Translations under genes and position numbers: made by a program
The notes under the pieces: model-generated
Seen by the model: only the letters and a program-made list of their open reading frames with translations
The model's database searches: none
What the model was told of the DNA's origin: nothing
DNA from: Polyangiales bacterium
GTDB taxonomy: Bacteria; Myxococcota_A; Polyangia; Polyangiales; Ga0077539
Reading direction: 5' to 3'
DNA: 64,000 nt
Assembly (NCBI GenBank): GCA_044229975.1
Contig: JBGARZ010000006.1
Span: 288,001 to 352,000 of the forward strand
Part shown: piece by piece, positions 40,319-58,647 of the stretch
How the letters are laid out: each line of letters starts with the position of its first letter
How positions within the stretch are numbered: the first letter of the stretch is position 1

Positions 40319-41713
40319 TCAGGCCGCGGAGGCCAACGGCTGAAATCCTGCGAGCGCATTCTGTGAGCTCGCGACCAAAGCGGCGTACGGATCGTACTTC
40401 GTCGACTTCATCTCACCGGGACGGGCCGCGGCGATCGCTACGAGGTTTTCTCGAACAACGACATCTTCCGGCTGGGAGTCGGCCAGGCTTCTGAGAATCG
40501 TCTGGGCTTCTTCCTCACGACCAACGCGCGCGAGCGCAATGGCGAGGTCGTTGAGAGCAGGCAGGTCAAGAACCCCTTGCTCGACTCCTCCACGTCGGAA
40601 CGCCTGGATGGCGTCGTCCCAATAACCACCGCGGACGAGCAGTCGTCCTGCGGCGCGCCACTCGGCCTTCGAGAGCGCTTCGGGGTGAACCGCAAGCGGA
40701 CGTCGGAGCGCGGCGATCGCGTCCGTGTGACCAAGGTCGAGCGCGATGTTCGCGCGCATCAACCTCAACCCCAACTGCGTCGGCATGCGCGTGAGCGCTT
40801 CGTCGAGCACCGTCAGGGCTCGCGCGTGTTCGCCTCGGCGTGCAAGAGCCCACGCGGCGATTTCCAGAGCGAAGACTCGATGGGGTTCGTCCCCGACCAT
40901 CGCGCGTTCGAGTTGCAATATCGGATCGATCAGATGCGTCGGGTCGAGCGCGCCGACCGCCAGTTCGGGTCGTTCGTTGGCCAGGTACAAGGCCCCGGCC
41001 TGCACCACCATCGAGGCGTCGAACCAACCGAGTGCCCGCTCTCTCGTCCGATTGCCGTCGTCTGCCGACGAGCCGCAGTTCGCCGTGAGGGCCAACCAAC
41101 GCTTGGCGAAGTGTTCCTCGACAGGCATCGCCAGACACGCAGCGAGCGCGTCTCGAAACGCGAGCGACAGTTCGTCCAGGGCGCTGTGAGCGAAGCTGCG
41201 GAGGTAGAGCGAGAACCGAGACAAGCCAACATCATCAGCTTCCGTCTCGTTGAGCAGGGTACGCGCGGCATCCAGGTAGCCATGGATCACGACCCCGTCG
41301 CTCAGCGACCACAGCCGGGCCTGGGTTCTCTCGAACAGCTCTCGGGCGAGTTCGTAGCGTTGGCTCGCCTCGCGGTAGAAGCGTGCGTGTGTCGGGCCCA
41401 AGCCCCGCCAAGTCGTGAGGATCTCGCCGACCAGACCCCAATCTCCAGAGCGTTCCGCGAGCGTCAGGGCTGAATGAGCGCAGCGCTGCTTGTTCTGGAT
41501 GGTTCCGCCGTCGTGAACGAGGAGCCATTGCTCCCAAACCGCAGCGCCATGGTCGCAAGCAAGCGCCAGCAACCGCTCCTCGGCATCGTCACCAACCGCG
41601 GCGTGTAGCGCGTTTGCCTGGAGCAGCAGACGACTCTTGTGAGCGCGCACGTCTTCGACGCACTTCGATGCGGGCCACGGCTCCAACGCTCCGATGAACT
41701 CCAGGACACTCAC
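40319..41713 (-). CDS. Hypothetical helical/TPR protein
   Basis: 464-aa ORF whose GTG start overlaps the upstream stop; C-terminal TPRs (ALNDLAIALARVGREEEA...PEDVVVRENL); visibly more A/T-ending codons than the flanks. Confidence 0.7.
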   Translation of the reverse strand: MSVLEFIGALEPWPASKCVEDVRAHKSRLLLQANALHAAVGDDAEERLLALACDHGAAVWEQWLLVHDGGTIQNKQRCAHSALTLAERSGDWGLVGEILTTWRGLGPTHARFYREASQRYELARELFERTQARLWSLSDGVVIHGYLDAARTLLNETEADDVGLSRFSLYLRSFAHSALDELSLAFRDALAACLAMPVEEHFAKRWLALTANCGSSADDGNRTRERALGWFDASMVVQAGALYLANERPELAVGALDPTHLIDPILQLERAMVGDEPHRVFALEIAAWALARRGEHARALTVLDEALTRMPTQLGLRLMRANIALDLGHTDAIAALRRPLAVHPEALSKAEWRAAGRLLVRGGYWDDAIQAFRRGGVEQGVLDLPALNDLAIALARVGREEEAQTILRSLADSQPEDVVVRENLVAIAAARPGEMKSTKYDPYAALVASSQNALAGFQPLASAA

Positions 41714-42267
41714 AGGATCACCTCGACCCTCAACTGGGGTCCACCGAAGGCTACGACACCGATACGCCCCGGAGAAACCTTGGCGGCGCGAACCTTCCTG
41801 CGCTTCGCCTCTGCGACATCCGACGTGTACCGACCGCTGGTGCCCGCGAACTCGATGACACCGGCCTTCGTGCCGTCCGGCCCCACGAGCGTGTAGTCCG
41901 TCTTCGAACCGATCTGCTGCACGTCGCCGATCCGAAGACCCGACCGTTCAAGTAGCACCGCCGCGATGACGGCGATGGCCCCGAACTCGACCCGGTCTTG
42001 GGGGGCAACCGACGTCTTCTCGAAGCGAGCCATCTTCAACGGGTCGATCGTCATCGAATGTGCGACCTCGCAAGGCTCTTTGGTCTCGTCGCCGCCAACC
42101 TCGTCGACGAACACTCCTTCAAAAGGAGTGACTTCCAGCGCCGCTGCGCCTGCGGACGAAGCCGCGCTGTAAGCGAACAAGGCCCCCGGAAAGAGTCCGC
42201 TGTCATCGCCCGCCACGTCGTCGATCCGGTACATCACCATCGCCGCCACCATAGGGCATCCCGACAT
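41710..42267 (-). CDS. Hypothetical protein, possible PD-(D/E)xK-fold nuclease
   Basis: Motif order E-F-G-A ... GSKTDY ... IEFAG ... K ... VVAFGGP is compatible with a restriction-endonuclease-like core. Start codon uncertain (42267 or 42240). Confidence 0.55.
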   Translation of the reverse strand: MSGCPMVAAMVMYRIDDVAGDDSGLFPGALFAYSAASSAGAAALEVTPFEGVFVDEVGGDETKEPCEVAHSMTIDPLKMARFEKTSVAPQDRVEFGAIAVIAAVLLERSGLRIGDVQQIGSKTDYTLVGPDGTKAGVIEFAGTSGRYTSDVAEAKRRKVRAAKVSPGRIGVVAFGGPQLRVEVIL

Positions 42268-43456: not shown

Positions 43457-44530
43457 GTGTTCGCCATCGACATGCTCCCCGCCGAGCACGGCGACTGCCT
43501 CTGGATCGAATACGGCCCCGCCGCCAACCCCCACCGCATCCTCATCGACGGCGGAACACCCGGCACCTTCCGCACCCTCCGCGCCCGCATCGCGGCGCTC
43601 CCCGCGGCGCAGCGTCGCTTCGAGCTGCTCGTGGTCTCGCACATCGACGCCGACCACATCGGCGGCGCCATCGAGCTCCTCGAAGACACCGCCCTCGGCG
43701 TGTCGTTTGGCGACATCTGGTTCAACGGCCATCGCCATCTTCCCACCCCCGAAGGCACTCGCGGCGTCGCGCAGGGAGAGGCGCTCTCCGACCTCCTGCG
43801 CACCCGCAACCTCCCCTGGAACCGCGCCTTCCACGGCGCCGCCGTCATGGTCCCGACGGAGGGTCCGCTGCCGCGCGTCACCCTCGAAGGCGCGATGACC
43901 CTCACGCTGCTCTCCCCGTGGCGCCCCGGCCTCGAACGCCTCCGCACCACCTGGGACAAGGAGTGCCGCGAGGCTGGCATCGCGCCGGGAGACACCCGCC
44001 GTCGTGCGCTCGACGACGCGCCTCGCAAGCGACGCAAGCGCGGTGGTGATCCCGACGTGGAGAAGCTCCTCGACGTGGCCTTCGCGCAGGACACGGCCGA
44101 GGCCAACGGCAGCAGCATCGCGCTGCTGGCCGAGCACGACGGCAAGCGCGCGCTGCTCACCGGCGACGCCTACCCCGGTGTGTTGATGGACGCCTTCGAG
44201 CGCCTCTTCGACGAGCGCGGTGGTGAACCGTTGCGACTCGACGCGATGAAGGTCTCGCACCACGGCAGCCGCGCCAACACCACGTGGCCGCTGCTCTACC
44301 GGGTCGAGTGCGGGCGGTATCTCTTCAGCACGGACGGGAGCGTCTTCGATCACCCCGACGACGAGTGCGTGGCGCGCGTCGTGGCGCACGGCGGACCGTC
44401 GCCGACGCTGTGCTTCAACTACCGTGGACCGCGCACCGAGGCGTGGGCCGACCCGGCGCGCGCGAAGGCCCTGGGTTACACCGCGGTGTATCCCGCGGAC
44501 GGGGCCGAAGGGCTGCGGGTGGTGCTGTGA
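43457..44530 (+). CDS. MBL-fold hydrolase, ComEC/Avs1a-like
   Basis: MLPAEHGDCLWI, ILIDGG, SHIDADHIGG, ANGSSIA, LLTGDA, KVSHHGS, FSTDG..FDHPD. Confidence 0.85.
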   Translation: MFAIDMLPAEHGDCLWIEYGPAANPHRILIDGGTPGTFRTLRARIAALPAAQRRFELLVVSHIDADHIGGAIELLEDTALGVSFGDIWFNGHRHLPTPEGTRGVAQGEALSDLLRTRNLPWNRAFHGAAVMVPTEGPLPRVTLEGAMTLTLLSPWRPGLERLRTTWDKECREAGIAPGDTRRRALDDAPRKRRKRGGDPDVEKLLDVAFAQDTAEANGSSIALLAEHDGKRALLTGDAYPGVLMDAFERLFDERGGEPLRLDAMKVSHHGSRANTTWPLLYRVECGRYLFSTDGSVFDHPDDECVARVVAHGGPSPTLCFNYRGPRTEAWADPARAKALGYTAVYPADGAEGLRVVL

Positions 44531-45774
44531 CGAAGCGCGCCCTCTGCATCGGCATCAACCGCTTCACCGACCGCGAGCTGCCTCCCCTCCGCGGGGCGGT
44601 CAACGACGCCCGCACGCTGTCGCTGATGCTCATGCGGGACTTCGGATTCGAGCCGCGGGACGTGCGCGTGCTCACCGACGAGCGGGCGACGAAGGCCGCG
44701 CTCGTAGGGGCCATCGGCGCGCTCATCGACGGGTCGCGCGCGGGCGACGAGCTGGTGCTCTTCGCGTCGACGCACGGCTCGCACGTGCCCGATCAGGACG
44801 GCGACGACGAGGACGGCTACGACGAGGTGCTCGTCGCCCACGACCACGACTGGGAGCGCGCCGTGCTCACCGACGACGACCTCGCGCGGCTGCTGGCGAG
44901 GCTCCCGGATGGTGTTCGTCTGGCGGCGCTCTGGGACACCTGCCACGCGGGGACGATGCAGGACACCGCCTCGCAGAGCTACCGCACCCGCAGTGTCGAG
45001 CGCCCCAGCGGGCTCGCCGATGGCGTCGAGGTGATGGGCTACCGCTACCTGCCGCTGCCCGACCGCTACGACGTCCCGCGCGGTGCGACGAAGGGTGTGC
45101 GGAAGAAGCCGCCGGCGCCGACGCGCAAGAAGAAGAAGCCGCCCGCGGGCGCCGACCATGGTGCCCTCGGGGCGCTCGTGCACGACGCGTTTCCCGCGGT
45201 GTCGCTGTCAGGCTGCGCAGACGACGAGACCTCCGCCGACGCGAGCTTCGGGGGCATCTACGAGGGAGCTTTCTCGCACGCGATGCTGGAGGTGCTGCGG
45301 CGCACGAAGGACGAGCTCACCTGGGAGCAGCTCCACAACCTCACGCGCGCGCAGATGAAGAAGCTCGGCATCAAGCAGACGCCGCAGCTCCACCTGCCGC
45401 GACGCGCGCAGGGCGTGCCGGTGTTCGGTGGGAGGGCGCGGCGCTCGACGGTGATGGTGAGCGTCCCGGCGGTGACGGCATCGGCGCCGACCATCGCGGT
45501 GGTGGATGTTGGTGCGGTCGACCGCGAGATCGCGGCGCACGAGCAGGCGGGGCGCTGGGCCGAGGCGGTGGCGGCGTGCTGGCGGCGCGTGGCGCTGGTG
45601 CGCGACGTGGCCGAGAAGGTGCGAACCATCGAGCATGTGGTGAGCATCCACCGCGTGGTGCTGCGCGACGAGGCCGCGGCGGTGCGGGCCGCGGAGGAGG
45701 TGCTGCGGGTCGATGCGGGGCACGCGGGGGCGCGGGAGTATGTGCGCGCGGCGAAGGGTCGGGATGGGGTATAG
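44527..45774 (+). CDS. Metacaspase (peptidase C14) with C-terminal TPR-like segment
   Basis: GTG start overlaps the MBL stop (GTGA); KRALCIGIN, L.GAVNDA, catalytic dyad STHGS and DTCHAG, SGC..DETSAD, GAFS, QTPQL. Confidence 0.9.
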   Translation: MTKRALCIGINRFTDRELPPLRGAVNDARTLSLMLMRDFGFEPRDVRVLTDERATKAALVGAIGALIDGSRAGDELVLFASTHGSHVPDQDGDDEDGYDEVLVAHDHDWERAVLTDDDLARLLARLPDGVRLAALWDTCHAGTMQDTASQSYRTRSVERPSGLADGVEVMGYRYLPLPDRYDVPRGATKGVRKKPPAPTRKKKKPPAGADHGALGALVHDAFPAVSLSGCADDETSADASFGGIYEGAFSHAMLEVLRRTKDELTWEQLHNLTRAQMKKLGIKQTPQLHLPRRAQGVPVFGGRARRSTVMVSVPAVTASAPTIAVVDVGAVDREIAAHEQAGRWAEAVAACWRRVALVRDVAEKVRTIEHVVSIHRVVLRDEAAAVRAAEEVLRVDAGHAGAREYVRAAKGRDGV

Positions 45775-47949: not shown

Positions 47950-48172
47950 CGGAGTTCGCGTGGGCCCATGAGCCGAGGTGCGGTCGCTCACTCCGGGCTA
48001 TTTCACGCGGTCACCTCGCTGCGCGAGGTTGCAGCATTGGCATCGAAGAACAAGTCCATCGGCTTGCTCATCGCCAGTCGAGAGTCCCTGCAACCTCGCG
48101 CAGCGAGGTGACCGCGTGAAATAGCCCGGAGTGAGCGACTGCACCTCGGCTCATGGGCTCACGCGAACTCCG
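47950..48172. repeat. 85-bp inverted repeat with a 53-bp spacer (REPIN/MITE-like) between convergent genes
   Basis: Arms 47950-48034 and 48088-48172 are reverse complements with 2 mismatches (both G-T). Each arm contains an internal hairpin (ACCTCGC-TGC-GCGAGGT in the left arm). Confidence 0.92.
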
Positions 48173-49082
48173 GCCCAGCGCGCGTGTAGCCGTCGAGCAC
48201 GAAGCGGTACATAGCCTCCGGGCGCGTCGAGCCGCACGTCAGCAACGCCGTTCGTCCGTCGCGCTCTCGCCGAACCTTCGTGGTGTGCAGTGATCCGGTC
48301 GCGTCGGCGAAGGTCACCACGCGCGCCTCGCCGTCACCCGTACACGAGCGGAAGCGCAGCTCACGCGCACCCAGCGGCGGACCATCGCGTCGCACGAAGC
48401 ACTCGGCCGCCTGAACGAAGCGCCCGTAGAGGCAGCGCCCGCGGTAGAGCGCCGGCTCGACGTGGTCGGCCAGGTAGCCGTCGAGGATCGAGCGCCCCGT
48501 GGCCTCGTCCACGCGCCCGAAGTAGAGGCCGTCGGGGAGGCACACGAGGTTGGCGGCGAAGCGGTCACCGCCGACGTGCGTCGACTGCCACACCTCGATG
48601 CCGGGGTGGTCTTCGAGCGCGTGGTAGAGCGCGGCGCCGTAGCGCGCGCAGCACGCGTCGTGGCGGCCGTGGGTGCATACGAGCGCGACGCGTCGGTCGG
48701 TACGGAGATGGTCGAGCGAAGGGTCGCGACGGACGAAGGCGGCGATGTCGAGCTGGGTGATCTCGGCGTAGTCGGAGAAGGAGACGCGATAGAGCACAGG
48801 GTCGCGCTCATGGGGGACGGCCACGAAGAGTGAGCGTATGGGACCGGGCTCGGGCGCGCGTTGGATGAGCTGGATGCGCAGGCCGTCGATCTGGTCTTCG
48901 GCGCGGCGGAGGTGCTGCTTCACGCGCTCGTCGAGGCGCTCGGAGCCCTCGACGGCGTCGTGCGTCCACGGACCCGGGCACTCGATGAGCAGCCACGCGT
49001 CGACAATGGAGGCGGTGGCGGTGAGTGACTCGTCGTTGGCCCGCGAGGTCTCTGCGCAATAGACGTGAGGAGCGCGACTCAC
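48159..49082 (-). CDS. Sucrase/ferredoxin-like (thioredoxin-fold [2Fe-2S], Apd1/Aim32-related) protein
   Basis: GTG start overlaps the JmjC stop; WLLIE.PGPW, VCTHGRHDACCA..G, WQSTHVGGDRFAAN..LP.G.YFGR, YRGR, C-terminal LTC. Confidence 0.88.
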   Translation of the reverse strand: MSRAPHVYCAETSRANDESLTATASIVDAWLLIECPGPWTHDAVEGSERLDERVKQHLRRAEDQIDGLRIQLIQRAPEPGPIRSLFVAVPHERDPVLYRVSFSDYAEITQLDIAAFVRRDPSLDHLRTDRRVALVCTHGRHDACCARYGAALYHALEDHPGIEVWQSTHVGGDRFAANLVCLPDGLYFGRVDEATGRSILDGYLADHVEPALYRGRCLYGRFVQAAECFVRRDGPPLGARELRFRSCTGDGEARVVTFADATGSLHTTKVRRERDGRTALLTCGSTRPEAMYRFVLDGYTRAGPEFA

Positions 49083-50272
49083 GGCTCTTCGACGGCGACG
49101 AGGCCCGCCTCGACGAGCTCGCGGATGAAGACACGCAGCGTGTCGGGAGGCAGTGACGAGACCTCGCGCAGCGCACCGAAGCCCACGCGGCGGGTCTCGG
49201 CGAGCGCGCGCAGCACGGGGAGCGCGGCGGCGGCGAAGGTCCAGCGACGGCCTCCGGCAGCGATGCGTACGGCGCCATCGGGGTCGGGCTCGACGCGATC
49301 GATGCGAGACGGAATCCAGCGCAGCGACGCGCCATGGGGGATGGGCGAACGTGCGGCGGCGAGGGGCAGGCTCATGCGGGTGCGGAGCTCGGCGGCCGTG
49401 TCGAGCTCGGCGAAGTAGCGTTCGAGGAGGTCGTCGGAGAGGAGGTCGACGAGCGCGCCGCGGAGCTCGCGCAGGTGGGCCGAGCGCGCCGCGGAGTCGC
49501 CGAGACGCGGGAGGTCGCGGCGAAACGCGGGCTGCGAGCGGAGCTCGTCGGCGCACCAGTGGAGGAGGTCGACGCCGGTGCGGGCGGTGGCGCCGAAGCT
49601 GAGGTGCAGCGTGGGCTCGCCGAGGGCGACGGCGCCGTGCCAGCAGCCACGCGGGAGGTAGAGAACATCGCCCGCCGAGAGATCTCCCTCCCAGATGGGT
49701 TCGGTCGGCGCGACGTCGTTGGGTTCGACGTCGTGGGTGAGCGGAAACTCGCGGGCGAAGCCGTACACGCGCCAGCGCTTGCGGCCCGTCACCTGGAGCA
49801 CGAACACGTCGTGGTCGTCCCAGTGAACGCCGAAGCCGTGGGTGGTTCCGAAGCCCGCGTAGGCGTTGACCTGGAAGCGCTCGCGAAACACTCCCTCGAA
49901 GCTCTCGGCGAGCTCGCCCACCGGGTCGACGAGCTCATCGACGGCGTCGAGTACCAGCGTCGCCCCACGGCGCAACTGCTCTTGCAGCAGCGCGTGGTCG
50001 ACGCGACGGTTGGCTGCGCTGCGCCCGCGGTGTGATGTCTGGATGTACTTGTTCTCGGGGACGGAGCCGCCGTCGAGCGCGAGACGCAGACGTGGTGCGG
50101 GCAGGCGGTGTGTGCGGAGCACCGTGTTGAGCGTCTCCCACGGGAGCAGGTGGGCGAAGCGGTCGGGGTCACCCGCGACGTGGAGGTGCCGTCGCCCCCA
50201 CGCGTCGCGGACGAACTCATCGAGGCTGGTGCGACCGAAGAGGCCGCGGAGGATGTCCTCCGGGCGAGCCAC
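49079..50272 (-). CDS. JmjC/cupin 2OG-Fe(II) hydroxylase (ROXA/YcfD-like, Cupin_4)
   Basis: GATLVL, VNAY, FGVHWDDHDVFVLQVTGRKRW (HxD plus 2OG-binding Lys), GDVLYLPRGCWH (distal His), LHLSFG, C-terminal winged-helix-like tail. Confidence 0.92.
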   Translation of the reverse strand: MARPEDILRGLFGRTSLDEFVRDAWGRRHLHVAGDPDRFAHLLPWETLNTVLRTHRLPAPRLRLALDGGSVPENKYIQTSHRGRSAANRRVDHALLQEQLRRGATLVLDAVDELVDPVGELAESFEGVFRERFQVNAYAGFGTTHGFGVHWDDHDVFVLQVTGRKRWRVYGFAREFPLTHDVEPNDVAPTEPIWEGDLSAGDVLYLPRGCWHGAVALGEPTLHLSFGATARTGVDLLHWCADELRSQPAFRRDLPRLGDSAARSAHLRELRGALVDLLSDDLLERYFAELDTAAELRTRMSLPLAAARSPIPHGASLRWIPSRIDRVEPDPDGAVRIAAGGRRWTFAAAALPVLRALAETRRVGFGALREVSSLPPDTLRVFIRELVEAGLVAVEEP

Positions 50273-50277
50273 GGCGG

Positions 50278-50586
50278 TCAGGCCGGGCTGCGGCCGTCGG
50301 TGCCGTCGGCGTCGCGGTGCGGGGTTCCATCGGTGCCGTCAGCGTCGCGGCCGGGCTTGTTGTCGGTGCCGTCGGTGTCACGGCCGGGAGCGCCATCGGT
50401 GCCGTCGGCGTCACGACCGGGCTTGTTGTCCGTTCCGTCAGCGTCGCGACCGGGCTTGTCCTTCCCGTCAGCGTCGCGGCCGCTCGCCCTCGCGTCGTCA
50501 CGAGCGCCCACGCGCTCGACGTTCAGGATCAGCCCCGAGCTCTCGTCCCCGCCCTGCGCCCCGTTGCTCGTCTCGTTCTTGTCCAT
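50278..50586 (-). CDS. Asp/Gly-rich repeat peptide (102 aa), putative RiPP-like precursor
   Basis: AGGAGGAG RBS before ATG 50586; N-terminal region with LILNVERV, then six RD(A/T)DG(T/K)D cores; stop lies 5 nt before the JmjC start. Confidence 0.8.
   Translation of the reverse strand: MDKNETSNGAQGGDESSGLILNVERVGARDDARASGRDADGKDKPGRDADGTDNKPGRDADGTDGAPGRDTDGTDNKPGRDADGTDGTPHRDADGTDGRSPA
50296..50478 (-). repeat. ~33-bp imperfect tandem repeat x6 encoding (PG)RDADGTD(NK/GA)
   Basis: Repeated GTCGGTGCCGTC(G/A)GCGTC(G/A)CG on the + strand, with synonymous variation between copies. Confidence 0.85.
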
Positions 50587-50630
50587 GACCAACTCCTCCT
50601 ACGGATGTCCGTACGCAGCCTGTTGACCTG

Positions 50631-50701
50631 GGCGCTCAACGTCAACGACCGACCTTCCGTCGCTCGTGTTCTGTGGTCCATCATCGCTGTCCCTCCCGAT
50701 G
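50631..50701 (+). repeat. Direct repeat, left copy (duplicate of the nth upstream region including its ATG)
   Basis: First 55 nt are 54/55 identical to 53176-53230; both copies end in CCCTCCCGATG. Confidence 0.92.
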
Positions 50702-50795: not shown

Positions 50796-52010
50796 ATGGA
50801 TCGGCTCAACCGCTACCGCGAATTCATGCGCCAGCTCGATCTGACGGACGCCGAGGAGGTGATCCGAAAGGGGATGTACGTCGCGCCCGCGGAGGGTGGG
50901 GTGGCCGAGCGCCTCGTGCCGTCGGTGGCCCTACGCCCGTACGCTTCTCACGTTCTGGTCGGGGGCATCGGCTCGGGCAAGACCACGCAGCTTCTCGTCG
51001 CGGCTGACCTCATCGAGGCGCGCTGTCCGGACACGTGGGCGGTCTACGTGGACGTCAGCAGGCGACACCGGTTGGCCGAACTGGCTCCGGGGGTGCTGGT
51101 TGCGCTCGCGGGTCTGGTGATCGAAGGCATCGTGCGTCCCAATGTTATCGCGCCGAGGTTTACGGAGCGGCCATCGGAGGTTCATCGCGCGCTGGAGCGC
51201 GTGCGGCGATGGGCCAAAGGCGAGCATGTAGATCCGGCGTATCTCGACGAAGGAGTGCACGAAGGTGACGGGGCAGTGTGGGTGGACGGCCTGCTCAAAT
51301 CTCCAGAGCCCTTGAGAGAGCAGTTGTCGGAGAACCTCGATGACATCGAGACCCTCCGCAACGCCCTGCCGAAGGAACGGCAGAACGTGACGATCCTCTT
51401 CGACTCTCTCGACCGCCTCGACGATGTCGACACTTTCGTCAGGTGCGTCGAACAGGACCTTCGCGCGCTCCGGCGACTCGGGATTGGCGTCGTGATGACT
51501 GCTCCGCTTCAGGCTATGTTCGGTGCGAAGCGCGCCGACCTGGATCGTTTCGACGTCGTCCTTCAACAGTCGGCGGTCGATGTAACGAACGACACGACCG
51601 GGCTCGCGTTTCTCTCCGATGTGCTCTTCCGACGGGCGCCCGCTGGACTGCTCTCCCCAGACGCCGCCGCGGCCCTCTCGCACGCCTCGGGTGGCGTGTT
51701 GCGCGACCTCATCGGGCTTGCTCGCTCGGCCGTGGAGGAAGCGTACATGCGGGGCGCCGACGTCGTCGACGTCGCCTCGGTGAGGCTCGCGATCGACCGC
51801 TTCGGCCGCAAGCGCATGCTGGGACTTCGCTCCAACGAGATCGACCTGCTCGATCGGGTGCGCCGCACGGGGCGCTTCGTTCCGACGACGGACGACGAGG
51901 TCGCGCTGCTCGTGACCCGCCGCGTCCTGGAGTACGAGGAGGACGGAGTGCGCTTCGCCGTGCATCCGACGCTCGTCCCGCTGCTCGAGTCCTTGAAGGA
52001 CGCGGCGTGA
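50796..52010 (+). CDS. P-loop ATPase (AAA+/STAND-related)
   Basis: Walker A GGIGSGKTT, Walker B ILFDSLD, lid motif SGGVLRDLI, C-terminal LEY...FAVHP. Confidence 0.85.
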   Translation: MDRLNRYREFMRQLDLTDAEEVIRKGMYVAPAEGGVAERLVPSVALRPYASHVLVGGIGSGKTTQLLVAADLIEARCPDTWAVYVDVSRRHRLAELAPGVLVALAGLVIEGIVRPNVIAPRFTERPSEVHRALERVRRWAKGEHVDPAYLDEGVHEGDGAVWVDGLLKSPEPLREQLSENLDDIETLRNALPKERQNVTILFDSLDRLDDVDTFVRCVEQDLRALRRLGIGVVMTAPLQAMFGAKRADLDRFDVVLQQSAVDVTNDTTGLAFLSDVLFRRAPAGLLSPDAAAALSHASGGVLRDLIGLARSAVEEAYMRGADVVDVASVRLAIDRFGRKRMLGLRSNEIDLLDRVRRTGRFVPTTDDEVALLVTRRVLEYEEDGVRFAVHPTLVPLLESLKDAA

Positions 52011-52012
52011 CG

Positions 52013-52597
52013 ATGTCGCCTGGCGCCCTCTCGCTCGGCGAGTTCGCCATGGGCGTGGCGCTGCGGTTCGGGACGCGCGACTGGTCGGTGCTCCTGGTGA
52101 CGGAGGCGAGCCGCTGCGAGACGGTGGCGCGCCAGCTCGCGGATGAGATCGAAGCCCAGGTCGAGGTACTGCCGGTGATCGCTGAGGTGGCGGAGTCACT
52201 GATCGAGGTCCTCCGTCACGAGAACCGTCCAGTGGTCGTGGGGTATCAGGGCGCGAGGGCGCTCGACGCCGTGTGGTCGTCGCTCGACCTTGACCGAAGT
52301 CGCCTGCCCGCCGCTCAGAGCGTGATGCTCGTGTTGACCCCGGCCGCCTTCGACCAACTAGAACGTCGCGCGCCGAACCTCGCAAGCTGGCTCGGCGCGA
52401 CGGTGTCGCTTGCCGATCTCGACGCGGGGCTGCTCACCGACGACGAGCGGGCGATGATGCTGGAGGGCTTCCGGACGAAGTTCGCGATGACCGACGAAGA
52501 GTTGCTCAAGGCTGCCGCGGAGGGACGGGCGCCTGCGGAGCCCGAGGTCGCGACGTGGCTGGTGCTGTTGGGACGAGGGGATCTTCTTGGGGCGTAG
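52013..52597 (+). CDS. Hypothetical protein (degenerate NTPase-like N-terminus plus short helical C-terminal domain)
   Basis: Coupled to the ATPase stop; WSSLDLDRSRL...LVL...RAPNLASW; C-terminus LEGFRTKFAMTDEELL...G...EVATW. Confidence 0.65.
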   Translation: MSPGALSLGEFAMGVALRFGTRDWSVLLVTEASRCETVARQLADEIEAQVEVLPVIAEVAESLIEVLRHENRPVVVGYQGARALDAVWSSLDLDRSRLPAAQSVMLVLTPAAFDQLERRAPNLASWLGATVSLADLDAGLLTDDERAMMLEGFRTKFAMTDEELLKAAAEGRAPAEPEVATWLVLLGRGDLLGA

Positions 52598-53162
52598 CGA
52601 CTTCACGGCCTTGCGGGTCAACATCCAGAGCCGCCTGCTCGGGGTCGAGAGGCCGGGACTGCCAGACACCGCGCGTGCCCTCCAACAGGAGGTCACGAAG
52701 CTGCTGGTTGGATTCTCGAATGATGGACTCCTGAAGAACCCGCCCCGTGAAGTCTATGGACTGTTGAAGCGGACCAAACCCACGGCGGACCGGGTCGCGT
52801 TGGCCGTCTGCTCGCCCGCGAACTTCCGTAGGGAGCGCTCGCTTCCTCACTTTGAGCGCGACGACGGAGCGTGGTTCGACTTCCACCTCGACGTTCGGGA
52901 GCGCGGTCGACAGCCGGTCGAGATCGTCGCCTACGGCTTCGAGTTGAGGTTCGACGCGAACGCTGGAGCGCCCGCGTGGGTGCGCTTCGACCTCAACCCA
53001 CCGGGCACCGACAACGACCGTCGAGGCGTCCGATCGCACCTCCACCCGGCGACGGATGACTGGTCGGTTCCGTCTCCCGTGTTCACGCCGATCGAGTTGC
53101 TCTCGATCATGGTGCTCGGGATGCGACCCGAAGACCCGGAACATCCGCGCAAGGTCGAGTAG
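52587..53162 (+). CDS. Hypothetical protein with RFD...HxH motif (possible toxin/nuclease)
   Basis: TTG start overlaps the upstream gene; WVRFDLNPP...RSHLHP...VPSPVFTPIELL. Confidence 0.6.
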   Translation: MGRSDFTALRVNIQSRLLGVERPGLPDTARALQQEVTKLLVGFSNDGLLKNPPREVYGLLKRTKPTADRVALAVCSPANFRRERSLPHFERDDGAWFDFHLDVRERGRQPVEIVAYGFELRFDANAGAPAWVRFDLNPPGTDNDRRGVRSHLHPATDDWSVPSPVFTPIELLSIMVLGMRPEDPEHPRKVE

Positions 53163-53175
53163 GGAAGAACCAGCC

Positions 53176-53245
53176 GGCGCTCAACGTCAACAACCGACCT
53201 TCCGTCGCTCGTGTTCTGTGGTCCATCATCACCGCCCTCCCGATG
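53176..53245 (+). repeat. Direct repeat, right copy (native nth 5' region)
   Basis: GGCGCTCAACGTCAACAACCGACCTTCCGTCGCTCGTGTTCTGTGGTCCATCATCACCGCCCTCCCGATG; the final ATG is the nth start. Confidence 0.92.
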
Positions 53246-57090: not shown

Positions 57091-58647
57091 CTACAGCAGA
57101 ATCTTCGTGACGGCGTTTCCCCGCGCCGTCGTGACCGCTTCGACCTTCAAGCGCTCGGGTAGTTCGGGCTGCCCCGAGCGCTGGTCGAAGCGCACCAGCC
57201 ATCCCCGCTTCGTGCCGATGCTCGCGAGGTACTCGTCGAGCTGATCGACGCCCGCGTCCGCCGGGTCGGCGCGCTTGTCGGAGTCGCGCCAGGTCTTCAC
57301 CTCGACGCCGAGCCGGTCGCCCTTGTACTCGACGCACAGGTCCAACCGCTTCGACCCGATCGCGAACTCACGATCGACCCGACCTCCGCCGTTCACGATG
57401 CGGTGCAGGAAGGCCATCAACACCAGGTGCGCCGCGGCCTCGTTGTACGGCGAGCTGCCGAGCAGCGCCTCGCCGTTCTGCAACCAGAACGCGACGAACA
57501 CCTCGCGCAGCCGCGTCCAGTCGATCGCCCCGCTCTCGCTCAACCACGACGGCGCGAGCCGCGGGAGCGACGCGCGCACGTGGGTCGTGAGCGAGCGCAT
57601 CGCGATCTCGCGGTAGATGGGGTTGGCGATCTCGATGACGCCGTCGCTCGCCTGCACGACGAGCCCGAGGTCGAGCACGAAGCGCAGGTCGTCGGGTGAC
57701 GCCGAAGCGAGCCGATCGCCGAGGATCATCGGCTCGATGACCGCGCGCACCCGCGGGTCACGCAGCCGCTCGGCGAGCGAGTCGAGGTGCGTGTCTTGTC
57801 GCTCGATGAGGATGTCGCGCGCCCGGTCGACGTCCGCCGCGGTGACCGGCGTTGCGCGATCCGGAACGACGACCTGCACCAGTTGCCGTGCGAGTGCGTT
57901 GACGATCCAGGGCTGACCTCGCGTCACGTCGAAGGCGCGCGCCAGCGCTTCGGGCGCGAAGCGCTGACCGGTCTCGGCGGTGTGCTGGGCGTAGAGTTCG
58001 GCGACCTCGTTGGCCGTGAAGTCGCGCATCGTCAGCGACTCGACCTTGATGTTGAAGGGCGACGCGGTGTGCAACAGCTCGCTTCCCCCAGACGCGACCT
58101 TGTAGTCGCGCACATCACGCAGACCCACCAGCGCGAGCGACCATGGGAAGCCCGCGGGCCGCAGGCGGTGTCCGTCGCGGAGCTGTCGCAGCACCGCAAG
58201 AAGCGTCTGGTCGCGGAGCGCATCGATCTCGTCGAGGAAGATCACCAGCGGTCGCGGCGACGCCTTCGCCCACGCCTGCAACGCAGCGCTTATGCGCGAC
58301 CCGGGCGAGGCTTCGGGCCACGGTGGCGGTTGCAGCTCGGGCGGCAACGCGGCTTGGATGGAGCCTCGCCAGACATCAAGGATGGCGTCTTCCGCCGCCC
58401 CGATGTCGTCGCTGTGAGGCGCCCCGACCTCCATCGACACCAGCACGGCGGAGTAGCGACCCTCGTCGGTGAGCGAGCGAGCCATCGCCGTCAGCGCCGT
58501 GGTCTTCCCCACCTGCCGCGGCGCGTGCAGGATGAAGTAGGCCATCTGTTCGACCAGCCCTCGAACCTCGGGCACGCGCCGTTCGGGCGGCAGCATGTAG
58601 TGGACCGACGGAAGGCACACGCCGCCGGTGTTGAAGTGACGGGTCAT
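57091..58647 (-). CDS. AAA-like ATPase (AAA_35-type) with C-terminal PD-(D/E)xK nuclease-like domain
   Basis: FNT.G.C....HYM, HAPRQVGKTT, FLDEID, SPFNIK, GQPW.VNAL; C-terminus REFAIG..RLDL...VEVK.W...QLD.YL. Confidence 0.88.
   Translation of the reverse strand: MTRHFNTGGVCLPSVHYMLPPERRVPEVRGLVEQMAYFILHAPRQVGKTTALTAMARSLTDEGRYSAVLVSMEVGAPHSDDIGAAEDAILDVWRGSIQAALPPELQPPPWPEASPGSRISAALQAWAKASPRPLVIFLDEIDALRDQTLLAVLRQLRDGHRLRPAGFPWSLALVGLRDVRDYKVASGGSELLHTASPFNIKVESLTMRDFTANEVAELYAQHTAETGQRFAPEALARAFDVTRGQPWIVNALARQLVQVVVPDRATPVTAADVDRARDILIERQDTHLDSLAERLRDPRVRAVIEPMILGDRLASASPDDLRFVLDLGLVVQASDGVIEIANPIYREIAMRSLTTHVRASLPRLAPSWLSESGAIDWTRLREVFVAFWLQNGEALLGSSPYNEAAAHLVLMAFLHRIVNGGGRVDREFAIGSKRLDLCVEYKGDRLGVEVKTWRDSDKRADPADAGVDQLDEYLASIGTKRGWLVRFDQRSGQPELPERLKVEAVTTARGNAVTKILL

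Follow-up and report, generated by a model that had tools for sequence, protein, structure and literature searches.

A conserved peptide, JmjC oxygenase and ferredoxin-like gene cassette in a Polyangiales bacterium, a candidate peptide-modification system

A three-gene cassette encoding a small Asp-rich repeat peptide, a JmjC oxygenase and a sucrase/ferredoxin-like protein was analyzed in the genome of a Polyangiales bacterium. The cassette lies on contig JBGARZ010000006.1 of assembly GCA_044229975.1, within a stretch of 64,000 nucleotides (positions 288,001 to 352,000 of the contig) that is called the window here and to which the coordinates refer. Comparison with related loci showed that peptide, JmjC and ferredoxin genes form a real conserved unit, and the sequences indicate that the peptide is very probably a dedicated substrate of the JmjC enzyme. 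A JmjC maturase encoded with its precursor, in the manner of peptides that are made by the ribosome and modified after translation (RiPPs), is an already known kind of system. The ferredoxin is the distinctive member, and the three-gene peptide-modification cassette is apparently undescribed. The reading that we prefer is leader-guided beta-hydroxylation of Asp, with the ferredoxin as redox partner and an intracellular metal ligand as product; taken in full, it would have slightly less than an even chance of being correct.

The three tightly coupled genes are all located on the minus strand. The peptide ORF (50278..50586, 102 aa, ATG start) is preceded by a Shine-Dalgarno sequence, AGGAGGAG (50593..50600, minus strand), which was read from the sequence 6 nt 5' of the ATG. 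It is followed after a gap of 5 nt by the JmjC ORF (49079..50272, 397 aa), which overlaps the sucrase/ferredoxin-like ORF (48159..49082, 307 aa) by GTGA. The ORF coordinates thus agree with the coupling and ribosome-binding site given in a preliminary description of this DNA. The GC content at third codon positions of the peptide gene (0.85) was in line with that of the neighbouring genes. The source genome is 10.0 Mb in size, contains one PF06999 gene and appears myxobacterial in its gene content, and the GC content of the window is about 70%. No sigma-70 promoter or intrinsic terminator was found by a consensus scan of the locus.

The six RD[AT]DG[TK]D cores of the peptide start at residues 37, 47, 58, 69, 80 and 91 (spacing 10, 11, 11, 11 and 11), as had been described, and the linkers between them (KPG, NKPG, GAPG and GTPH) are roughly those reported. 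This core region (residues 37-97, 50296..50478, minus strand) holds six D-x-D-G-x-D units, which are the predicted modification sites on the basis of the repeats, the homologues and the single-core relatives. Tandem Repeats Finder (TRF) detected a 33-nt unit with 5.8 copies in the gene. Compared with the column majority, nine codons of the six cores differ synonymously and two non-synonymously. In 17 non-overlapping pairs of homologous peptides with at least 70% identity, codon positions 1, 2 and 3 differed at 0.125, 0.084 and 0.242, respectively. Because the differences are mostly synonymous and at the third position, the earlier proposal of selection on the peptide sequence holds. Among 123,511 stop-to-stop ORFs genome-wide, only two contained at least three D.D[GA].D motifs, of which the peptide was the sole short one. 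A chance repeat was accordingly rejected, as was a spurious ORF.

A leader motif was identified at residues 16-26 (50509..50541, minus strand) by alignment and profile, and is predicted to form the enzyme-binding strand. Its consensus in 47 aligned peptides was SGLLLSVEPL, in short form SGL(L/I)L, with S17 and L19 invariant. A profile built from 46 Acidobacteriota rows, excluding the window peptide, scored the window motif at 15.9, above all of 8000 background ORFs, and no other precursor with this leader was found above noise elsewhere in the source genome. The gene therefore encodes a precursor-like peptide with a conserved leader and a variable core, as in RiPPs. At E<=0.001 the peptide had 434 homologues, a set drawn almost wholly from Acidobacteriota. 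Of the 120 that were listed best, most were named 'hypothetical protein' and a few carried unrelated automatic labels; the label 'BatC', given in the preliminary description, was not seen. The 102-aa peptide matched no Pfam or NCBIfam family, the 47 peptides gave only chance-level matches to NCBIfam, and no signal peptide was recognized in it by inspection. In a canonical EF-hand loop the Asp residues are spaced 1, 3 and 5. The core Asp residues are spaced 1, 3 and 6, so a canonical EF-hand loop was rejected.

The conservation of the cassette was analyzed using the JmjC protein in two scans. In species genomes, at least 154 relatives were confirmed among 599 candidate stretches, and the best 80 (42-51% identity, all titled Acidobacteriota) were kept. 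In metagenomes, the best 80 of 516 loci were kept, partly duplicates of the genome loci. An acidic peptide was encoded directly upstream in 79 of the 80 Acidobacteriota loci (the single miss, at a contig end, has only 34 bp upstream), the leader pattern was present in 74 and a ferredoxin gene lay directly downstream in 78, both misses being at contig ends. In the metagenome loci, a scored peptide was found in 66 of 70 evaluable cases and a downstream ferredoxin in 49 of 56. Inspection revealed a leader peptide in three of the four loci without a scored one (L180, L221 and L223). In the fourth (L216:1107-2549), the leader motif is fused in frame to the JmjC N-terminus and a separate acidic peptide is missing, which could reflect either a fusion of leader and enzyme in nature or the loss of a stop codon. 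A peptide with a conserved leader and a variable repeated core thus preceded this JmjC gene wherever there was sequence for it. JmjC-ferredoxin pairs lacking the peptide, which would speak against the proposal, were checked for and are not the rule.

The closest homologue, locus L148 (74% identity), encodes DADATD repeats and a ferredoxin, which indicates that Gly is not essential in the core. The distribution was patchy, since a close JmjC was found in one of 401 sampled genomes of the phylum of the window (the source genome itself) and in one of 301 sampled Acidobacteriota (the centre genome). As had been noted for the window, no protease or exporter adjoins the cassette, and no protease, exporter or receptor was conserved in the 80 Acidobacteriota loci, whose flanks reached up to 4 kb. 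A GAF histidine kinase gene was the sole frequent neighbour (29 of the 80 loci, which are kin). Ferredoxin loci were absent from the viral contigs. The evidence for actinobacterial cassettes came from three high-GC metagenome loci and from plasmid and phage-like records.

In the Acidobacteriota loci, Asp accounted for 32% of the core residues, Gly for 16%, Ser for 14%, Ala and Thr for 11% each and Arg for 1%; the commonest unit was DADGTD, with a median of six D-x-D-x-x-D per peptide. Several other core types share the leader. Single-core peptides ending in D-N-D-G-S-D were found in L180 and L222, both with the ferredoxin, and in L223; these relatives narrowed the unit to D-x-D-G-x-D. In a second type, the short single-core peptide has R/K-S-D-x-N-D at its end, and its gene precedes one for an aldo-keto reductase and often a phosphotransferase-like gene. 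These reductase variants occurred on Streptomyces plasmids, on phage-like contigs and in metagenomes (L145-L147, L168, L202, L243-L248), and no paper combining these features was found by a literature search. In L168, a divergent sucrase-ferredoxin takes the place of the aldo-keto reductase. A third type has Trp-rich D-G-W repeats (L190, L199, L221, L226 and L227) and is not accompanied by a ferredoxin. ABC transporter genes are convergent to Trp-rich variants in L220 and L226.

With the leader profile, 17 of 21 variant loci ranked within the top 1% of the 8000-ORF background, but none of six comparison loci did (five of the twin-Arg type described below and RoxA), the variant scores being the best of three frames and therefore somewhat flattered. 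When 66 chosen rows were placed in a quick tree, the variants fell into one group of 38 rows (SH-aLRT 81, a weak value), in which the Trp-rich variants were nested among the ferredoxin-linked ones. The residues common to all core types were aspartates, mainly the D-x-x-D pair. Since only Asp is kept across the core types, this conservation points to Asp as the likely modification target. The preliminary description had named Asp or Arg; the Asp positions are kept across homologues but Arg is not, and Arg was rejected as a general target.

The JmjC protein matched PF08007 (JmjC_2) in Pfam with an E value of 5e-28, and neither the JmjC nor the ferredoxin had an NCBIfam family. Residues H150, D152, H212, K165, N136 and Y138 were invariant in 47 sequences, so the co-encoded putative maturase has an intact active site; in the NO66 alignment, an HWD motif lies opposite HYD. 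The structure model (pLDDT 89.8) displayed the full architecture of ribosomal oxygenases (ROX), with JmjC, dimerisation and winged-helix domains, and aligned with NO66 over the full length (Z 27.1, rmsd 6.1, 375 residues aligned, about 20% identity). The nearest solved structures were the ribosomal oxygenases NO66, MINA53 and YcfD, likewise in full length. The wide fold search with the whole model was dominated by catalytic-domain matches and did not bear on the nature of the winged helix. The cassette JmjC shares PF08007, the HxD...H triad and the 2-oxoglutarate (2OG) Lys with human NO66 and MINA53, E. coli RoxA/YcfD and B. subtilis YxbC, and the alignment spans the JmjC, helical and winged-helix domains in full. 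However, it differs from these enzymes in its low identity, its distant position in the quick tree, its patchy distribution and its constant coupling to a small peptide gene. E. coli RoxA was on a long branch outside the 38-row group, and its neighbourhood (phoPQ and purB) differs from that of the cassette. An orthology with RoxA was rejected because of the tree position, the different gene context and the absent NCBIfam match.

The C-terminal winged-helix domain of the JmjC protein (about residues 316-395, 49088..49327, minus strand) is predicted from the secondary structure of the model to resemble a RiPP recognition element (RRE). The last 80 residues consist of strands followed by three helices, with W344 in the final strand and E385/L386 in the third helix invariant. 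RREs bind leaders where these residues sit, the binding mode being that given in the available portion of bioRxiv 10.64898/2026.10.04.756588. PqqD matches were weak and below cut-off in strength (14 of 47 homologues, best E 0.0016), and ROXA-like_wH was matched by seven of 47. Based on the model, leader binding by this domain is plausible.

The sucrase/ferredoxin-like protein matched PF06999 (Pfam, E 2.5e-23). Its model (pLDDT 91.6) contained a thioredoxin-like [2Fe-2S] ferredoxin domain at residues 128-222 and a cystatin-like C-terminal sheet, and the ferredoxin domain aligned with the Aquifex [2Fe-2S] ferredoxin 1f37 (Z 10.4, rmsd 2.9, 95 residues aligned). No sequence match to a solved structure was found; Foldseek gave no match at E<=0.001, with thioredoxin-like ferredoxins ranked top. 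No signal peptide was seen by inspection. The ligand motif of Aim32 is CX8CXnHX3H according to the accessible part of PMC8482512. The predicted Fe-S ligand motif of the cassette protein is C136-X8-C145...H169-X3-D173 (48564..48677, minus strand), invariant in 46 aligned proteins, and two further Cys near the protein ends, C9 and C283, are also invariant. The protein had been called Apd1/Aim32-like. Family, CX8C and fold are in agreement with this, but the second His of the HX3H pair is replaced by Asp throughout the cassette, and the cassette protein further differs from Apd1/Aim32 in C9 and C283 and in its fixed position beside a JmjC gene. No assigned bacterial function of the sucrase-ferredoxin family was found in the literature.

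HxGGD was present in all 110 cassette ferredoxins covering the motif (of 120 distinct proteins, ten being truncated). Among ferredoxins without a cassette JmjC in the fetched flank, 33 of 35 had HxGGH, one had Cys and one (L124) had Asp, where the flanks were 1.5 kb for 29 and 5-6 kb for six. Each of the two sets includes many kin. In a FastTree phylogeny of the ferredoxins, from which the window protein was dropped by de-duplication with L150 standing in, the cassette label required three changes and Asp appeared in two separate places. Three of four annotated stand-alone sucrase-ferredoxin regions inspected lie among siderophore or iron uptake genes, and the fourth does not. In the former (L121, L143 and L144, from Bacteroidota and two cyanobacterial plasmids), the gene is located among TonB-receptor and iron-siderophore ABC genes; a role of these stand-alone proteins as ferri-siderophore reductases, suggested by their gene context, seems worth testing. 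The three proteins grouped with most cassette ferredoxins in the FastTree phylogeny, with long branches.

Beta-hydroxy-Asp is a ligand of Fe(III) in siderophores. In the preferred reading, the C-terminal winged helix of the JmjC enzyme would grip the peptide leader, which is fairly likely, and the enzyme would beta-hydroxylate one Asp in each D-x-D-G-x-D core. That Asp is the target and beta-hydroxylation the first reaction has somewhat better than an even chance. The Asp-substituted ferredoxin would then be a dedicated redox partner acting on the product. In the cytoplasm, Fe(III) or a different hard cation would be held by the clustered hydroxy-Asp, and the ferredoxin would reduce the bound iron for release. 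The modified peptide probably stays cytoplasmic, because no conserved protease, signal peptide or exporter was found. Among single purposes, an intracellular metal-binding product with the ferredoxin as its partner is the most probable, but it is itself less likely than not. More speculative is a wider version, in which the JmjC enzyme, guided by the leader, would place several Fe(III) ligands in a disordered acidic peptide. This intracellular poly-hydroxy-aspartate iron chelator would have its own release enzyme, a Cys2-His-Asp [2Fe-2S] ferredoxin that reduces the iron or chemically finishes the residue, and would be one branch of a leader-defined family with cores and redox partners swapped between Acidobacteriota and Actinomycetota.

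Several observations weigh against the preferred reading. Oxygenases dependent on 2OG turn over without a ferredoxin. The winged helix is a general ROX feature that also occurs in ribosomal-protein hydroxylases, and its profile did not find the PqqD-family genes of the source genome at E<10. Single-core peptides accompanied by the ferredoxin (L180 and L222) cannot serve as multi-site stores, and together with the aldo-keto reductase variants they indicate that metal storage by many repeats is not the whole story; the Trp-rich variants have no ferredoxin at all. The siderophore neighbourhood of the stand-alone relatives is the only link to iron and an indirect one, and no iron-uptake or metal-regulator gene was kept beside the cassette in the 80 loci. 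The His-to-Asp change itself suggests that the cassette ferredoxin may have a different job from these relatives, which have His (L143 and L144) or Cys (L121). Most of the loci are kin and the metagenome set overlaps the genome set, therefore the conservation counts are not independent. The characterized JmjC RiPP enzymes, as far as the available portions of the papers cited below extend, hydroxylate ornithine, Phe or ring residues and not Asp.

The strongest alternative is a two-step chemistry, because the gene after the JmjC gene encodes an Asp-type Fe-S protein in some loci and in others an aldo-keto reductase, near which a phosphotransferase-like gene is located. The JmjC enzyme would oxidize Asp or the adjoining backbone and the partner would finish the reaction, giving a dehydro, keto, epimerised or cleaved peptide and not a hydroxy-Asp chelator. 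A Lewis-acid dehydratase or lyase activity could come from an Fe-S cluster in which Asp is a labile ligand, and a keto product could be reduced by the aldo-keto reductase. The His-to-Asp swap tracking the cassette and the resemblance of single-core precursors to classic RiPP precursors fit this explanation, and oxidative cleavage would account for the absent protease. However, the Trp-rich variants have neither partner adjoining the JmjC gene, one stand-alone ferredoxin (L124) has Asp too, the non-invariant Gly of the core weakens a Gly-centred cleavage, and no catalytic role for the ferredoxin family was found in the accessible part of PMC8482512. We consider this alternative unlikely.

Quite unlikely is a route in which general proteases process the peptide and transporters encoded elsewhere export it, be it as a small signal, an antagonist or an extracellular metallophore. 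The regular repeats with basic or Pro-Gly linkers between the cores resemble multi-core precursors, and related JmjC genes of the source genome follow peptides with a twin-Arg-like hydrophobic N-terminus. The transporter genes convergent to some Trp-rich variants and the plasmid and phage-like location of the reductase variants would also be in accordance with export. Against this stand the lack of a conserved protease, exporter or receptor in the 80 loci, linkers too variable for a shared cleavage site and a partner ferredoxin without a recognizable signal peptide. Finally, the JmjC enzyme might modify another cellular protein, as RoxA does uL16, with the acidic peptide as a regulator, decoy or metal chaperone. 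The full-length match to ribosomal oxygenases and the leader motif fused to the enzyme in L216 are compatible with such a role, but the low identity to solved ROX structures, the RoxA branch outside the group and the different RoxA neighbourhood are not what it would lead one to expect. The patchy distribution is unlike that of a housekeeping enzyme, and the core types vary while the leader stays. This role is accordingly rated as very unlikely.

Hydroxylases of the Fe/2OG type are encoded with precursor peptides in several characterized RiPP pathways. PhaI of phaeornamide biosynthesis belongs to PF08007 and hydroxylates ornithine, CzlI (curacozole) hydroxylates Phe and BipG (biphenomycin) hydroxylates ornithine, according to the available portions of PMC8784127, PMC11575548 and PMC12707348, respectively. 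MppG is leader-dependent and its C-terminal RRE takes the leader as an added strand, as stated in the available portion of bioRxiv 10.64898/2026.10.04.756588. These four have tailoring roles in larger clusters that also encode cyclases and further maturases, whereas the cassette JmjC is the main enzyme, its core is an Asp repeat and a ferredoxin-like protein is its sole partner. The accessible text of PMC12710340 reports RRE-like folds in PF08007 proteins that have bacterial homologues in RiPP-like contexts. An MNIO enzyme likewise forms hydroxy-Asp in a RiPP (PMC13060819, in the portion available). Bufferins possibly follow a similar logic, in which a non-haem iron enzyme modifies a ribosomal peptide for metal binding, but they are made by MNIO enzymes, and the cassette enzyme is a mononuclear JmjC. 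The beta-hydroxy-Asp siderophores are non-ribosomal and exported, while the cassette peptide is ribosomal and has no export machinery beside it.

The word 'ferredoxin' is absent from the accessible main text of a survey of bacterial JmjC neighbourhoods (PMC2938197). No description of the peptide-JmjC-ferredoxin trio was found in a literature search that most subscription papers lay outside, and the supplements of PMC12710340 and PMC2938197 could list such loci. For the bacterial ROX-type JmjC enzymes, a large orphan group, the cassette supplies a substrate that can be tested, and for the sucrase-ferredoxin family a partner that can be tested. Should the His-to-Asp swap prove to be a true change of ligand, an unusual [2Fe-2S] coordination would be tied to a specific pathway. 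One short leader steering a hydroxylase onto both DADGTD and Trp-rich cores would, if true, be useful for hydroxylating peptides at several sites. Provided that metal binding is confirmed, the cassette would be a simple three-gene system for intracellular buffering of iron or other cations in soil bacteria.

Two more ROX-type JmjC genes, each following its own peptide, were detected in the source genome on contigs C39 (L140) and C25 (L142). Each of the two peptides has a Cys, a hydrophobic N-terminus of a twin-Arg-like kind and repeats of the form T-D-x-D-x-G...A/S-D that are separated by GRG linkers; they are the only two ORFs of the genome with at least two TD.D.G-type repeats. The three strongest PF08007 genes of this genome are thus each paired one-to-one with a private upstream D-x-D repeat peptide. 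The relatives L130, L135, L137 and L139 share the twin-Arg-type peptide, and in L137 the JmjC gene precedes it. These pairs are possibly an exported or lipid-anchored sister class without a ferredoxin. Distant ROX-type cupin genes were also located beside small ORFs (L231/L232 of genome G402, L249, L250 and L251). In G402 and on a Mycolicibacterium plasmid the cupins are in tandem, 7.9-kb E. coli plasmids carry one together with an ABC transporter, and in Azospirillum a ROX-type cupin is located near asparagine synthase and Asp/Asn beta-hydroxylase genes.

Among the genes around the cassette in the window, those for a ribA-like GTP cyclohydrolase II, an FAD-binding protein and a P-loop ATPase were rejected as cassette members because they are not kept beside homologues. 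Defence-like or mobile-looking genes were located at 40319-42267, 43457-45774, 50796-53162 and 57091-58647, and comprise a TPR protein with a small partner, a metallo-beta-lactamase-fold protein adjoining a caspase-domain protein, and P-loop ATPases, with no Pfam match for the ORF at 50799-52007. A palindromic element of 223 bp (47950-48172), with 85-nt arms that are 98% complementary, covers the final 14 nt of the ferredoxin gene. It gave 88 BLAST segments across the genome and thus appears to be a dispersed REP/MITE-like repeat. A direct repeat of 71 nt (94%) was found at 50631-50701, upstream of the peptide gene on the opposite strand, and at about 53176-53245, directly before an endonuclease III gene. 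Between the two copies lie the P-loop ATPase gene and hypothetical genes, an arrangement that suggests an insertion accompanied by duplication.

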